From Candidatus Omnitrophota bacterium (lineage in GTDB: Bacteria > Omnitrophota > Gorgyraeia > JAGLLT01): a stretch of DNA of 36,359 bases. Position 1 is the first letter of the stretch. Every line of letters starts with the position of its first letter. Under the pieces are notes generated by a model. That model was not told the origin of the DNA. It saw nothing but the letters and a program-made list of their open reading frames with translations, and did not search any database. The stretch is taken from assembly GCA_023140385.1 (NCBI GenBank), contig JAGLLT010000020.1, forward strand, positions 1 through 36,359, given 5' to 3'. Position numbers and translations under genes: made by a program. Shown here piece by piece: positions 28,601 to 33,284 of the stretch.

Positions 28601-31046
28601 CTATACTTATGGTGAGAGGGGTAATCTTGTCGAAGAAAGAGATGCTTATGACAATGTCGCAACAATGAGTTATGATCAATATGGTCAGATAGCTCAGATG
28701 GTTGACAAAAATGGTAATATTACGAAGTTTGAATACAACGACATCGGCTCAGTAGTTAAGATTACCAAGAAGATGAAAGATGCACCTGATCCCGATGTTG
28801 ATCTTATAGTAACCATGGAATATGATTCTATAGGAAACCGCGCAAGTTTTACTGATCCAGAAGGAAATACTACTACATTTGATTATGATATTCTAAATAG
28901 ATTAATCTGTACCACTGACCCAATAGGTAATAAGACTGGCTATACTTATGACGAAAATAATAATATTACACAAATTACCTATAAGGATTCAAATGACGCC
29001 GTCTTAAAGACAACATCAAAGACCTATGATGTTGCTGACAGGTTAAAAACTGTTACTGACCATCTTGGGAATACTACAATTTATGATTATGATGTGAACG
29101 GCAACACAATTAAAATAACCGATGCCTTAGGCAATGCAAATACCTTTACCTATGATGAGAGAGACCTACTTTCATCAAAGACAGATGCCAATGGCAGCCT
29201 AACTACCTATTCTTATAATGTTGTTAAAAAACTAACCTCGATAGAAGACGCGAACAACAATATAACAAGTTATAACTATAATGATGTAAACAAACCAATA
29301 ACTATAACCTACCCTGATTTTTCTCAAGAAACCTATACCTATAATGAAGTAGGCAATCTACTTAGCAAAACTAACCGGGCAGGTGAACAAATTGCATACG
29401 CATATGATAGCTTAAATAGACTAATTACCCAAACGTATCCTGATTTAAGTACAGTTCAATATGTCTATGATAATAATTCAAGACTTATTACTGCAACAGA
29501 TTCAAATGGAACTACAACTTACTCATATGATAAAGCGGATAGATTAGTAAGCGTAGTTGATATTTACGGCAAGGTTGTAAGCTATGAATACAGTAAAGCG
29601 GGCGGCAGGACTAAGATGACATATCCGGATAATGAATATATCACTTACGCGCGAGACGAACTAAACAGACTTACAAGCATAAAGGATATATCAGACAACA
29701 ACATTGCGGCCTATGACTACAATGCTCTCTTAAGGGTAACTAATCTTACACTTGAAAATGGAACCGAGACTGCCTATGAATATGATAATATCGGCCGTTT
29801 ATTAGACCTTGTCAATAAAAAAACCACAACTGCGCCGGAGACAATCTTGTCATCATTCGGCTATACTTATGATAATATAGGTAATAGACTTACCAAGACA
29901 ACCATGAATGGAACATACGACTATACTTATAACAACATCTATGAGCTCACTCAGGTAGAAGATCCAGAGAATAATATCACAGTTTACAATTATAACGGTG
30001 TTCACAGCAGAACTAATGTCAATGGTGAAAGTTACATTATTAATAATCTCAATCAATATACAAATGTTGGTTCTACTAACTATATCTATGATACAAAAGG
30101 AAATCTTACAGGAGATGAGAGCTGGAGCTACACCTATGACTATGAAAACAGACTAATCTCTGCGGCAGATGGTATAACAACCGCAACCTATACCTATGAC
30201 TATTCAGGAAGAAGGATAGCTAAGGATGTTGATGGTGTAACTACAAGATATGTCTACGACGGCATTCATATAATAGCTGAGTATGATGCCTCTGACAGTC
30301 TCCTTCAAAGAAATATCTTTGGAATTGGAACTGATGAAATATTAAAGCGTACGGATTACACAGGTGAATATCCTGTTGATTATTACTATCATAAGGACGG
30401 ACTGGGTTCGGTAGTTACTATATCAGATTCAGCCGGTGATATAATAGAAAAGTACTTCTATGACGTTTATGGTGATGTTATAATAAAAGACAGTAATGAC
30501 AATATTTTTTCTCAAAGCGCCATAAATAATAGATATATGTTTACAGCAAGGGAATATGATAGAGAGACAGGACTTTATTATTATAGAGCCAGGATGTATT
30601 CAAGCGCACTTGGCAGGTTCCTCCAGCCTGATCCTGTTGGTTATTATGAAAGTATGAATCTGTATCAGTATGTAAAAAATAATCCGGTTAATTGGATTGA
30701 TCCTATGGGGTTGTATAAATGTGATCCATCGCTTTGTGAGAGAAACAAAAGAAGTTGCCTACAAAGCGCAAAACAGGAGCTTAGACGATGTCTTCAGAAA
30801 CAAACAGGAGAAGCAGGGATGTCTGGGTACGTTGGTGTACCTGGAGCTATTATTACTGGTGCCTATGTAGGTGCGCGAATAGGTGGTCCATATGGTGCTA
30901 TTGTAGGTGCGGCCACCGGCTCTCTTTATGGAGTAGGAGGACTCTTTATCTCCAACTGGAATCTAAACTTATGCCAGGAAAACTACGAGGATGCGGAAAA
31001 AACTTGCCTTAAAATTTATGGAATCTGTATGAGTGCCTGCAAATAG
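25644..31046 (+). CDS. Secreted RHS/YD-repeat polymorphic toxin-like protein (signal peptide, dockerin-like, Ig, CBM11-like, FN3, DUF6531-like, RHS core, Cys/Gly-rich C-terminal domain)
   Basis: N-terminal hydrophobic signal; GDANNDNSVALSD / ADFNGDNSIGLSD duplication; many YD repeats; core end ETGLYYYRARMY...GRFLQPDP...NPVNWIDPMGL. Accessory domain names are by-eye motif matches. Confidence 0.93.
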   Translation: MKQALLFISRRLSKPLFILTLLLFFLSSHSLPAIADGSISGKVTIQNRTDHSAPITFKLKIPGQTAPIQASEATTASDGSYQLNNIPAGIYNLSAKALNSLSQNYVLIEVTEGQNTSNIDFSLLGGDANNDNSVALSDRFILRKAWNTNIGDVNWDERADFNGDNSIGLSDKFILSANWYKNGSEPQISIDLPEDNSISAVSPISVSGTTDNDVSTVTVNGLSATIDSGTFYADNVPLSSGLNVISAIAVNAMGNKNADLIRLSYDPNFTPTEVFEDFDGNNPRVDYWWNGYDGENVYTRSLDHTLFRGGSTSMKVEYNKSGYPLSLFAVQLKCNGIDNDFSKYDKLSFWVYTDNPQLTIRVKFEDGDGHSWEGDCSSSVQGEWQRFVYDFSGAHGYMDLSNISWNLLFFADPGQANTQGIFYMDDIALHSSKPYFHPPLTTPTLSGPTEPVYGEYQLNWTDIPGAGIYELQEIKSHDFSSTYVYWTNDTYRNFNNRVIPTAYYYRLRAWSNVPEEGGTSSGWSNIISLKIIDGPPIISEVYSLYPIESHGTYVHSVGDYVKICLKEKYNAPDITSGTFRIISASQSYDSGLVEATKSEDGLYYFYHWDTNGLNPADDYIVAAILTDAIGQTDTDGSDEDPDLTISLILAAPSRYGVNLEADFSISSIGIPLKFERFYHSDMLYDGPMGDRWTHSYNMQVEEQEDGNVALLWKIEDYWNFFIKNPDGTYKSPLGGQMELIKNPDSTFTLKRNNINYNFNPDNKLANIEDLNGNQVTLTYFEGLLYTITDTSGRQITFGYYTGYTNPKIKSITDFAGRTFNYEYDSSGNLVKYINPAGYETTYNYDGHNLTIITNPRGYHTYFSYIDDKLYSKSNDDGINHTTYTFLTEPNRTIITNARGYETTYIMEDTTHSSTVDALGNITTTISSDQGYPLSVTDANENTWFYAWDENGNRTTVTCPYENTTTYVYNQLNLIASRTDAKGNATSYTYGERGNLVEERDAYDNVATMSYDQYGQIAQMVDKNGNITKFEYNDIGSVVKITKKMKDAPDPDVDLIVTMEYDSIGNRASFTDPEGNTTTFDYDILNRLICTTDPIGNKTGYTYDENNNITQITYKDSNDAVLKTTSKTYDVADRLKTVTDHLGNTTIYDYDVNGNTIKITDALGNANTFTYDERDLLSSKTDANGSLTTYSYNVVKKLTSIEDANNNITSYNYNDVNKPITITYPDFSQETYTYNEVGNLLSKTNRAGEQIAYAYDSLNRLITQTYPDLSTVQYVYDNNSRLITATDSNGTTTYSYDKADRLVSVVDIYGKVVSYEYSKAGGRTKMTYPDNEYITYARDELNRLTSIKDISDNNIAAYDYNALLRVTNLTLENGTETAYEYDNIGRLLDLVNKKTTTAPETILSSFGYTYDNIGNRLTKTTMNGTYDYTYNNIYELTQVEDPENNITVYNYNGVHSRTNVNGESYIINNLNQYTNVGSTNYIYDTKGNLTGDESWSYTYDYENRLISAADGITTATYTYDYSGRRIAKDVDGVTTRYVYDGIHIIAEYDASDSLLQRNIFGIGTDEILKRTDYTGEYPVDYYYHKDGLGSVVTISDSAGDIIEKYFYDVYGDVIIKDSNDNIFSQSAINNRYMFTAREYDRETGLYYYRARMYSSALGRFLQPDPVGYYESMNLYQYVKNNPVNWIDPMGLYKCDPSLCERNKRSCLQSAKQELRRCLQKQTGEAGMSGYVGVPGAIITGAYVGARIGGPYGAIVGAATGSLYGVGGLFISNWNLNLCQENYEDAEKTCLKIYGICMSACK

Positions 31047-31064
31047 CCTGATAGGAGAGGTAGG

Positions 31065-31862
31065 ATGTTGAGTCAAAAATATAAAAATGATACAAAACTA
31101 TTAAGAAAACTTATTCTCTTAATTGGAGGTCTTCTTCTTTTTGAAGAAGGATTAAATTGGCTAACTTTATCCTTAAACTTAGATGTGAGATTTTATCTCT
31201 GGTTTACGTTTATAGCAGTTAGTATAGTAGTAATAATAGTGATTTCAGTGCTTTACAGAGCATACCGAAGGTGCTCAAGCATAGTTAAGGGACTAGAAAA
31301 CTTAAACCAAAAACAGAAAAGATACTTAAAGCGAGCCAGAAAACACCGAATTCTTCTTTTAATTATAGGTATCCTTATTTTTGTAGGTGTTCATTATTAT
31401 ACCTTAATATGCATAAGTTCACTTTCATTTTTAGATGTGAAATTTCACACTTGGTTTTTACCTATAATATTGGGTACAATACTCGGTTTAATATCTTGCT
31501 GGGAAGACCCTGAATGGTTAAATATAGTTGATAATTTAGGAAAACTAAGCCAAAAACAGAAAAGGTACATCCAGCGATACAGAAAATTCCTGATACTTCC
31601 TTTAATTGTTGGCATTATTAGTATAGTTAGTGGTGTACAATTTGCTTTACAAACGCATAAAATCAGTTCGATTTTAGATATAAAAATTTATCAGGTTCCT
31701 ACATTTTTTCTCATTCCTCGTTCTGTAGCATTTGCCATATTTGCTTTAGTAGGATGGTATTATTTCTATTCTGCGTTAAAAATAGTACAAAGGGTCAAGT
31801 CTCGACTTGACTACACAAACAACGGGGTCACACACAAACACATAAATCGGGGGACACTGTAG
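31065..31862 (+). CDS. Multi-pass membrane protein of three internal repeats; putative immunity protein; 3' end probably altered by insertion
   Basis: 18 bp after RHS stop, SD AGGAG/GAGGT; about 6 hydrophobic segments; last ~25 codons run through the repeat array. Confidence 0.7.
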   Translation: MLSQKYKNDTKLLRKLILLIGGLLLFEEGLNWLTLSLNLDVRFYLWFTFIAVSIVVIIVISVLYRAYRRCSSIVKGLENLNQKQKRYLKRARKHRILLLIIGILIFVGVHYYTLICISSLSFLDVKFHTWFLPIILGTILGLISCWEDPEWLNIVDNLGKLSQKQKRYIQRYRKFLILPLIVGIISIVSGVQFALQTHKISSILDIKIYQVPTFFLIPRSVAFAIFALVGWYYFYSALKIVQRVKSRLDYTNNGVTHKHINRGTL

Positions 31863-31893
31863 TAACGGGGTCAGACTGTAGTACGGGGTCAGA
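31792..31893. repeat. Cluster of five GGG(G)(T/A)CA motifs with hairpin and tandem duplication
   Basis: Motifs start 31792, 31824, 31849, 31867, 31885; hairpin GTCAAGTC-TC-GACTTGAC 31794-31811; tandem ACTGTAGTA(A)CGGGGTCAG 31856-74 and 31875-92. Confidence 0.85.
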
Positions 31894-31912
31894 CCTCGAA
31901 ATGCGAAAAGGA

Positions 31913-31941
31913 TTGACAGAGGTAAATAGAAGCAGTAGAAT
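31913..31941 (+). promoter_or_regulatory. Near-consensus sigma70 promoter of the transposase
   Basis: TTGACA 31913-18, 17-bp spacer, TAGAAT 31936-41; ATG at 31948. Confidence 0.75.
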
Positions 31942-31947
31942 ACCAGT

Positions 31948-32895
31948 ATGGCGAGGCCCTATCGATTACAATTAGAAGATTGTTTATATCATATAATTAG
32001 CCGCGGGGATGACCGAAAGAAGATATTCATAAATAGATATGATTATGAGAAGTTTCTAGAATATCTTCAGTTAGCTAAAGACAAATATAAATTTTATCTT
32101 TACGCCTATTGTTTGATGCCCAACCATTACCATCTTCTTATAGAAACCACACAACCTAATCTTTCCCGTATAATGCAATATATAAACGCCTCCTATACTA
32201 TCTATTATAATACCAAACGCCGCAGATGCGGACATGTATTTCAGGGGCGCTATAAGTCTATAGTGGTAGAAGGAGATAGCTATTTTCTTGAATTAAGCCG
32301 CTATATTCATCTAAATCCTGTACGGGCGAAGATGATAACGGATCCTTCAGGATATAAATGGTCAAGTTATCGCGGATATATAAAAAAGAAAAGTGATGAA
32401 CATATAGATAAAGAGTACGCGCGAAGATACTTTGATATGAGTGTTAAGCAATATCAGAATTTTGTATTAGAAGGGATTAATAACCAGAAAAACCCCTTTA
32501 AGGATATATATGTGGGGTTTATATTAGGCAAGACGAAGTTTATCAAAGATAAATTGAAGAGGTTAAAAGGACAGATTGAAGGAAGAGAAGTCTCCTACAA
32601 GAAGAGAATTAGCGGCAGCTCAGATATAGATAGTATAGTTAGAGCGGCAGCTCAGAAGTATGGACAGAAGGTTGACGATATTTACAAAGCAAAAAGAAAG
32701 CCGTTGTTATCGAAAAAAATAGCGCTATACTTATCAAAGAGGCTTACCGGATTAACCAATAGGGAGATAGGTGAATTTTTCGGAATAGGTCATTCAGCAG
32801 TGAGTAAGGCAGCTATGGATATTTTAAAGTTAGCGGAAAAAGATAAAGTGATTAAGAAGGAGATAGAGGAGCTCATTTCGCATTTCGAGGTCTGA
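31948..32895 (+). CDS. REP-associated tyrosine (Y1/HUH, IS200-like) transposase with C-terminal DnaA-C-like HTH
   Basis: YHIISRG, AYCLMPNHYHLL (HUH), GHVFQGRYKS, RYIHLNPVRA (catalytic Tyr), KWSSY; tail ALYLSKRLTGLTNREIGEFFGIGHSAVSKA. Confidence 0.92.
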   Translation: MARPYRLQLEDCLYHIISRGDDRKKIFINRYDYEKFLEYLQLAKDKYKFYLYAYCLMPNHYHLLIETTQPNLSRIMQYINASYTIYYNTKRRRCGHVFQGRYKSIVVEGDSYFLELSRYIHLNPVRAKMITDPSGYKWSSYRGYIKKKSDEHIDKEYARRYFDMSVKQYQNFVLEGINNQKNPFKDIYVGFILGKTKFIKDKLKRLKGQIEGREVSYKKRISGSSDIDSIVRAAAQKYGQKVDDIYKAKRKPLLSKKIALYLSKRLTGLTNREIGEFFGIGHSAVSKAAMDILKLAEKDKVIKKEIEELISHFEV

Positions 32896-33284
32896 CCCTA
32901 GAGTACTAGAGGTCTACGGTATTTTGCAAAATATTTTAAGGATAAAAAAAGAAAAAATCAGGCTGGTCGAGTATAAAAGTATCAAATCAGGGATAGCTCA
33001 TTGTGTCCCCTGATTATGAGTTTGAGCAAGAACCCCCTATGGATGAAAACTAACCGACCTTTACTTAATCTTAAAGGTTGTCCAAAACGCTTATCTCATT
33101 TTTCCCTTATTTAAAATTCTTCTTGATTTTTATATCAATAGGTGACCCCGTAACTATGTGGATGCCGAGAAACTCGTTGAATTCTTATAATTCAAGCCGC
33201 CCTTTTTTATTAACCCCGCCAAACGTTACAAAAACTAAATAATTTTTAAGTAAAATAATACTATAAAAAGACAAAAAGTTTCTA

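Follow-up and report, generated by a model that had tools for sequence, protein, structure and literature searches.

Junction-spanning duplications at the ends of TIRtrons, viewed from a motif array beside a TIRYT gene of Candidatus Omnitrophota

RAYT-like genes that lie between terminal inverted repeats have been described as TIRtrons and their enzymes as TIRYTs (Di Nocera et al., 2013; PMC3733652). The repeats of TIRtrons share the sequence GGGGWSAS and also occur singly, as dimers or grouped (PMC3733652). TIRYTs fall into subclass 2.1 of the TnpA_REP proteins, within which those that bear a Bac_DnaA_C tail belong to subgroup 2.1.2 (Quentin et al., 2018; PMC6006769). No biochemical assay of the TIRYT class was found in print. 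The element considered here lies in a stretch of 36,359 nucleotides from a Candidatus Omnitrophota bacterium (assembly GCA_023140385.1, contig JAGLLT010000020.1, positions 1 to 36,359), hereafter the window, in which an array of short GGGG(T/A)CA motifs precedes a transposase gene. A TIRtron of about 1 kb, consisting of a TIRYT gene between 23-nt terminal inverted repeats, has the array as its left fringe. One motif of the array is the product of a local duplication across the junction between flanking DNA and element end, of a kind that recurs at TIRtron ends in many phyla.

The window element resembles the described TIRtrons in its Y1 gene, probably RAYT-like, with a helix-turn-helix (HTH) tail and in its GGGGWSAS inverted repeats (PMC3733652; PMC6006769), and further in that the 3′ end of the gene runs into one of the repeats and that solo and grouped copies of the repeats occur elsewhere in the genome. 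It differs in the short stretches of flank and repeat head that are copied in tandem outside its ends, a feature that the text passages of the published accounts do not describe. REPtrons (RAYT/TnpA_REP; Corneloup, 2021; PMC8266576) are alike in having a homologous HUH/Y1 enzyme, a gene bracketed by inverted copies of a dispersed, tagged repeat and a 4-nt tag at the 5′ foot of a palindrome, and cleavage by their enzyme near the repeat yields a 3′-OH that can be used further (PMC8266576). However, the tag is GTAG in REPtrons and GGGG here, bare hairpins stand where inverted repeats of 20-30 nt are seen here, and the HTH is an extra of the window element. The bacterial interspersed mosaic elements (BIMEs) of REPtrons alternate in orientation, whereas the tandem copies in the window and at other TIRtrons keep one orientation and include flank. 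GTAG-tagged repetitive extragenic palindromes (REPs), RAYT/TnpA_REP and BIMEs are reportedly the subject of work by Nunvar in 2010 and Ton-Hoang in 2012. An assignment of the window element to the REPtrons was rejected, its heads being GGGG(T/A)CA and not GTAG, and its left repeat folding weakly by itself (-4.3 kcal/mol). Elements of the IS200/IS605 family (IS608, ISDra2) likewise have a Y1 HUH transposase, no target-site duplication and an expected single-strand chemistry. They differ in their asymmetric subterminal hairpin ends, in having no terminal inverted repeats and in a transposase of about 130-150 residues; this assignment too was rejected, given the symmetric 23-nt inverted repeats and a two-domain protein of 315 residues that reaches 20.4 bits with the NCBIfam IS200 model (cut-off 55).

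The window TIRtron and the parts of its array

The features of the array and the element are, by position:

31790..31816, + strand: solo REP-like repeat AAGGGTCAAGTCTCGACTTGACTACAC, with three G and not four; contains the palindrome 31794-31811
31813..31839, + strand: head b, AAACAACGGGGTCAC, bracketed by ACACAAAC at 31813 and 31832
31845..31857, + strand: head c, AATCGGGGGACAC, which fits GGGGWSAS
31856..31894, + strand: 18-nt tandem duplication across the junction ('stutter'); unit of flank CTGTAGTA(A)C plus head GGGGTCAGA
31885..31908, + strand: left terminal inverted repeat GGGGTCAGACCTCGAAATGCGAAA, the working repeat; part of the perfect 23-nt inverted repeat 31886-31908 / 32876-32898
31913..31941, + strand: promoter-like site TTGACA-17-TAGAAT (consensus scan, 11/12 matches; pattern match only)
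31948..32895, + strand: TIRYT gene, 315 residues; Y1 HUH transposase domain plus C-terminal HTH like DnaA domain IV (Pfam, NCBIfam, alignment)
32876..32898, - strand: right terminal inverted repeat; covers the last codons of the gene and its TGA stop
33003..33015, - strand: head c′, AATCAGGGGACAC, inverted partner of head c
33122..33151, - strand: head b′, ACGGGGTCACCTATTGATATAAAAATCAAG, with inverted matches to 31822-31848 and 31860-31873

The TIRYT protein matches Pfam Y1_Tnp (8e-16, 58.7 bits, cut-off 23) and Bac_DnaA_C (3e-9, 37.2 bits, cut-off 31.5). Its best NCBIfam model is REP_Tyr_transpos (REP-associated tyrosine transposase), at 71.8 bits and below the cut-off of 80, and its homologs carry the source name 'REP element-mobilizing transposase RayT'. 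Residues 227-310 align to domain IV of E. coli DnaA (1j1v, E 9.7e-5). Among solved structures the whole protein matches DnaA domain IV alone, and single-sequence phmmer with the Y1 domain gave spurious weak matches only. H60-Y61-H62 and R118-Y119 are invariant in an alignment of 19 homologs, Y119 being the putative catalytic residue by comparison with published RAYT motifs. Together, the flanking repeats, the GGGGWSAS heads and the domains match the published TIRYT class and identify the window element as a TIRtron. The genome holds seven Y1-transposase loci, at least four of them with GGGG-headed inverted repeats of their own, and related repeat families of 5-9 members.

The right repeat begins with GGGTCAG, one G fewer than the GGGGTCAG of the left repeat, and encodes the final residues of the protein (..SHFEV and stop). 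It is identical in 22 of 24 nt to the repeats of L037, an element in a metagenome-assembled genome of WOR-3 (1139-1162, 2129-2152), while the two proteins share only 55% identity and L037 likewise ends in ..FEV; the repeat is more conserved than the gene, perhaps because it doubles as coding sequence for the protein end. The -10-like element of the promoter-like site ends 6 nt before the ATG (31948), so the transposase mRNA may be leaderless. The -35-like TTGACA lies just inside the left repeat, as it does in several relatives.

The array spans 31792-31891, and the stretch 31780-31915 reads AAATAGTACAAAGGGTCAAGTCTCGACTTGACTACACAAACAACGGGGTCACACACAAACACATAAATCGGGGGACACTGTAGTAACGGGGTCAGACTGTAGTACGGGGTCAGACCTCGAAATGCGAAAAGGATTG. 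The first-pass annotation had listed five same-orientation GGGG(T/A)CA motifs: a pattern search returned four exact matches, all on the + strand, at 31824 (GGGGTCAC), 31850 (GGGGACAC), 31867 and 31885 (both GGGGTCAG), while the fifth, at 31792, has three G only (GGGTCA in an AGGGTCA context). The spacers, put earlier at roughly 10-26 nt, measure 26, 19, 10 and 11 nt in order. They do reuse local sequence, as had been noticed, with the 8-mers ACACAAAC at 31813 and 31832 and CTGTAGTA at 31857 and 31876, the latter each time followed by (A)C and, in the second copy, overlapping a TAGTAC at 31879. The 8-bp palindrome reported at 31794-31811 is present (arms GTCAAGTC, 31794-31801, and GACTTGAC, 31804-31811) and folds as DNA with 7 pairs and a 4-nt loop at -5.4 kcal/mol. 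Tandem Repeats Finder delimits 31856-31894, with a period of 18, 2.1 copies and 95% matches. Two further heads lie downstream of the gene on the - strand (33004-33010 and 33143-33149). All heads to the left and right of the gene, the right repeat included, face the gene, and all six flanking 8-mers (four exact array motifs and two inverted downstream) match GGGGWSAS.

The bare 7-mer GGGG[TA]CA is not enriched, either in the window (9 matches against 5.9 +/- 2.1 in shuffles, 10 of 100 of which reach 9) or genome-wide (202 matches against about 217 expected from base composition). The array is nevertheless the sole spot in the 1.495-Mb genome with four same-strand matches inside 68 nt, for which the Poisson expectation over the whole genome is 5.5e-5. 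Significance is thus limited to the clustering, which is not due to chance, and to the tie between the motifs and repeat ends. Nine motif clusters occur in the genome, and the four read in context (C10, C45, C36 and C56) all sit at repeat-like ends.

The five motifs of the array are not equivalent: a solo repeat, two older or further heads, a local partial copy and the working repeat follow one another. The first, at 31790-31816, is one of seven genome copies of AAGGGGTCAAGTCTCGACTTGACTACA (three on C10, one on C13, three on C38). Its sequence also forms both terminal repeats of the TIRYT gene L018 in a genome of the same genus, and by this match the motif at 31792 is a solo REP-like repeat from a different TIRYT family. 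The longer form of head b, AAACAACGGGGTCA(G), has further copies at C5:34473, C14:41801 and C56:11999, and reads AAACAAACGGGGTCAG at C38:21990. Head b has a weak inverted partner beyond the gene, 31822-31848 pairing with 33125-33151 over 27 nt at 70% complementarity, and head c has one at 33003-33015 (13 nt, 92% complementary). Head b′ is identical in 27 of 28 nt to C5:34994-34967. The pairs b/b′ and c/c′ span the gene in nested order, and the heads at 31824 and 31850, with inverted partners on the far side, correspond as far as these alignments go to the published 'grouped TIRs' arrangement. The working repeat at 31885 has a solo copy at C38:21993. Of the five, only the motif at 31867 is an on-the-spot copy: its unit consists of CTGTAGTA(A)C plus GGGGTCAGA, the flank and the first 9-10 nt of the working repeat, and after it come this flank once more and the complete repeat (direct-repeat families D4 and D9). 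The array had been proposed to be a record of repeated HUH nicking and rejoining at one site. The 31867 unit fits such a record, while the motifs at 31792, 31824 and 31850 more plausibly derive from other families, as solo or older heads.

These parts also bear on an accretion of insertions, in which separate or nested insertions of TIRtrons, or of derivatives that lack the gene, would have hit a favoured site and, after deletions, left one motif each. The nested partners of heads b and c speak for it, as do the dispersed seven-copy family at 31790-31816, the C5 copy of head b′, the description of grouped TIRs in print (PMC3733652) and the TAGTAC that adjoins three ends here. As shown below for other elements, accretion leaves two kinds of local copy unexplained, and we regard it as unlikely.

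TAGTAC itself is found at 31783 and 31879 on the + strand and at 32908 on the - strand. TAGTAC or AGTAC(T) stands directly outside three ends here and outside a related copy (the loose end at 31885 in sequencing run X5). It was not seen outside the C22 paralog, the C38 solo copy or L037. It may mark a target preference of the sub-lineage of the window element.

Stutters at TIRtron ends

The motif is, as proposed earlier, an end motif: it heads the terminal inverted repeats of this family and agrees with the GGGGWSAS in print (PMC3733652). Inverted repeats headed by GGGTC[AG] bracket 104 of 193 homologous loci, scored with at least 15 of 20 positions matching. By their record titles the hosts include Omnitrophota, WOR-3, Desulfobacterota, Planctomycetota, Verrucomicrobiota, Acidobacteriota, Chloroflexota and Patescibacteria. 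The window TIRYT has matches in more than 7000 protein clusters, and 245 of 401 sampled genomes of the phylum contain a strong match.

Across these loci, TIRtrons in many phyla repeatedly show micro-duplications that span the junction and are specific to the ends. The exploratory set comprised 99 non-identical elements, the locus of the window included. An extra head in the same orientation was found no more than 40 nt outside 30 of 174 ends, and in the opposite orientation outside 2 of 174; in a window 60 nt further out the counts were 7 and 3 of 174. Within 70 nt of the ends, 39 of 54 partial copies stop 5-7 nt after the start of GGGTC, and 33 of 54 share at least 4 nt leftward with the full end, the fourth G usually being one of these. 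Local flank accompanies nearly every partial copy, in the layout flank-head-flank-head-flank-full repeat (for example L117, L050, L174, L108, L105, L181, L141 and L189). Accretion would account neither for partial heads that share their local flank with the full end (33 of 54) nor for perfect tandem units, and the inverted remnants it would leave are nearly absent beside the ends (2 of 174).

A motif-free junction test scored an end when at least 9 nt of the junction-spanning segment recurred exactly no more than 60 nt outside it, with outside control positions 100-500 nt from the element. In the exploratory set 25 of 181 ends scored, against 7 of 972 outside controls and 0-3 of about 181-198 inside controls. 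Since the pattern had been discovered in that set, hold-out elements were drawn from 400 other genomes of the phylum, leaving 41 after removal of duplicates. Here 13 of 81 ends scored against 3 of 289 controls, which brings both sets to 38 of 262 ends and 10 of 1261 control positions (combined odds ratio 21). The earlier description of each unit as an end motif with a bit of flank thus holds for the 18-nt unit of the window and for the duplications family-wide.

The duplicated segment holds 3-15 nt of the element end, and 6-9 nt in 24 of 38 cases. Most partial copies end after 6-9 nt of the head and include 3-13 nt of flank from their own locus, so that partial copies must arise locally, after insertion. 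The same stutter is seen at solo repeats in the genome of the window (C10:8693/8681, C45:33109/33097, C56:4458/4445 and C36:4702/4726). One stuttered element, L108, belongs to a cultured isolate, Desulfobulbus alkaliphilus DSM 24258, and the pattern is therefore not an artefact of metagenome assembly. A related left end in run X5, from another study, is preceded by AACAGTACT-GGGGTC-T-AACAGTACT, a stutter with a different flank. Among 92 elements no target-site duplication of 3-9 nt was found beyond chance, as expected for Y1 enzymes. No description of stutter-like junction duplications at Y1/HUH transposon ends was found in the passages of the literature searched; the figures and supplements of the TIRYT papers may hold more on grouped repeats.

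Counted per element (n = 123), stutters occur at both ends in 7, at the left end only in 7, at the right end only in 13 and at neither in 96 (odds ratio 7.4, p 0.002). This co-occurrence at both ends points to a factor acting at the level of the element, and so tells against a replication slippage that is independent of the transposase, in which a G-run or hairpin at the head stalls the polymerase and slipped mispairing duplicates the stretch just copied, with no nick. Such slippage is suggested by the perfect tandem units (the window array, L117, L050, L174, L108, L181 and L203), where inspection finds 0-3 nt of microhomology, by unit lengths of 7-53 nt, which are typical of it, and by the GTCAAG...CTTGAC hairpin present in many repeats. 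However, partial-head length is uncorrelated with the predicted foot of the hairpin (r = -0.15, n = 22), and stutters show no clear dependence on hairpin strength (12 of 76 ends with strong predicted hairpins, 11 of 108 with weak ones), both of which weaken a hairpin stall as the cause. That all four clusters read in context, out of nine in the genome, sit at repeat-like ends likewise speaks against it. Slippage alone is, like accretion, an improbable source of the stutters.

Same-orientation direct repeats called iterons lie beside the nick sites of HUH replication initiators in geminiviruses, circoviruses and rolling-circle plasmids. By analogy, the heads could be extra sites selected for binding by the DnaA-like HTH or the HUH domain, raising occupancy or regulating the promoter. 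It is consistent with this that the copies duplicate the best-conserved section of the repeat, that the protein has an HTH like DnaA domain IV and that the heads stand just upstream of a near-consensus promoter-like site. Iterons, however, are regularly spaced and belong to the replicon, whereas TIRtron copies are irregular, with unit periods of 7-53 nt and no phasing, and contain host flank. The inclusion of arbitrary local flank means that the copies are made anew at each locus and not carried along with the element. Stutters are moreover as frequent at the right end, away from the promoter, and about 85% of ends have no extra heads. The window array was accordingly rejected as an iteron array on its periods and its locus-specific flank, and selection for binding is a distinctly less probable origin of the heads than slippage or accretion.

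A proposed mechanism at the element ends

The best overall explanation, which we hold to be probable though well short of certain, is that the array is the left fringe of a TIRtron and that stutters result from the transposase acting at its own ends. The transposase would break one strand, or block synthesis on it, within the head, at about GGGGTC(A). By one route the 3′ end, consisting of flank and partial head, would slip back, re-extend and reseal. By another, a head cut on one copy would be cross-joined to a flank cut on the sister copy through the strand transfer of the enzyme itself. Either route would add one unit of flank plus head, and repeated cycles would build arrays.

The reciprocal products of such events would be head-less ends. 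The cross-joining route predicts them, and they occur: at L057, L182, L118, L126, L062, L060 and L140 one arm keeps its GGGG(T)C head and the partner begins 4-10 nt further in. A further case is an alternative right junction of the window element in two sequencing runs, X1 and X4, whose contigs depart from the right end at 32894 into CTAGAGGTCTACATATGCTAGAGGTCTACA, without a GGGGT head and with tandem units of its own. In X1 its depth is 3.4, against 5.0 for the form in the window, and it may be either a second allele or a second copy.

Nicking and rejoining by the HUH enzyme is suggested because of where the copies break off. The TnpA_REP relatives cleave single strands between C and T or between C and A near REPs and stay bound to the 5′ end, leaving a 3′-OH able to prime synthesis or to attack another strand (PMC8266576). 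These sites are echoed by the putative zone between C and A of GGGGTCA in TIRYTs. It is conceivable, on a tentative view, that stutters and head-less ends are in vivo scars of TIRYT catalysis, with a cleavage zone at about that step in the conserved head, and that the class nicks and rejoins its own ends in many phyla.

Several points weigh against an action of the transposase as the source of the array and of stutters in general. The loci are not independent of one another in descent, and the p-values are overstated in consequence. About 85% of TIRtron ends carry no stutter. The break point is a zone, 3-15 nt of the end, and not a single bond, and the 0-3 nt of microhomology at perfect tandem units suits ordinary slippage equally well. 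Pairing between b and b′ and between c and c′ extends over just 10-14 nt and could in part reflect chance matches among motif-bearing sites, and no event at the site of the array is needed to account for the heads at 31792, 31824 and 31850. Finally, the putative nicking is read from assembled contigs.

Neighbouring genes and the reach of the finding

The first-pass annotation had also suggested that the array might be a local diversifier, reshuffling the boundary between an RHS toxin and its immunity gene. The TIRtron does lie directly after the open reading frame (ORF) that follows an RHS protein of 1800 residues, and the last 24 codons of that ORF (...KIVQRVKSRLDYTNNGVTHKHINRGTL) are read from the array. 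The array, however, is at the 3′ end of this ORF and not between the toxin and the presumed immunity gene. RHS repeats occur at two loci of the genome (C13 and C27) and Y1 genes at seven, and the window holds the one adjacent pair, so that adjacency is seen at 1 of 7 Y1 loci and 1 of 2 RHS loci. No wider link to RHS genes was found in the genome. The same arrays accompany elements with unrelated neighbours in many phyla. In addition, the contigs of three sequencing runs show no variation in the array. A role as diversifier is therefore very improbable. The one visible effect of the array here, the supply of the last 24 codons, is a commonplace by-product when repeats land at the 3′ end of a gene.

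The check for variation rests on assembled Logan contigs, and the three runs (X1, X2 and X4) belong to one study and possibly to the source sample; no insertions or deletions in the array were found in these contigs, an outcome that counts neither for nor against variability. The DNA of 30700-31790 is present in none of 12 relatives, so the state before insertion is not visible.

The product of the ORF itself (31065-31862) is membrane-like, contains internal repeats (KQKRY.. segments, with 31546-31607 a repeat of about 31275-31335) and matches DUF4231 weakly, below the cut-off. That it is an immunity protein is a guess from its position. Elsewhere in the genome, a Y1 gene remnant at C5:34441-34626 (- strand) ends right after the HUH motif (..SNHFH), at the start of a AAACAACGGGGTCAG head; here a repeat head cuts a transposase gene. 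At C26:16125-16601 lies a shorter RAYT-like gene, with no DnaA_C match in the searches made, flanked by another palindrome, GTCCCACCTCGTAGGTGGGAC, which is dispersed at C26:1288, C26:16666, C47:3127, C56:10577 and C56:12146. Gene and palindrome would give this small genome a second system, one that resembles a REPtron.

The element class is already known; for the comparative result on stutters no match was found in the passages of the literature searched. It concerns elements that are very widespread. Clusters of GGGGTCA-like motifs beside Y1 genes should be annotated as element debris and not as new systems, and such end debris can lengthen or change neighbouring ORFs at their 3′ ends, an effect seen in the window. 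The end-specific scar predicts where cleavage would fall, in the first 6-9 nt of the GGGGWSAS head, and offers a cheap comparative marker of activity. If the stutters are indeed made by the transposase, the number of units at element junctions could indicate, from sequence alone, which TIRtrons are active.

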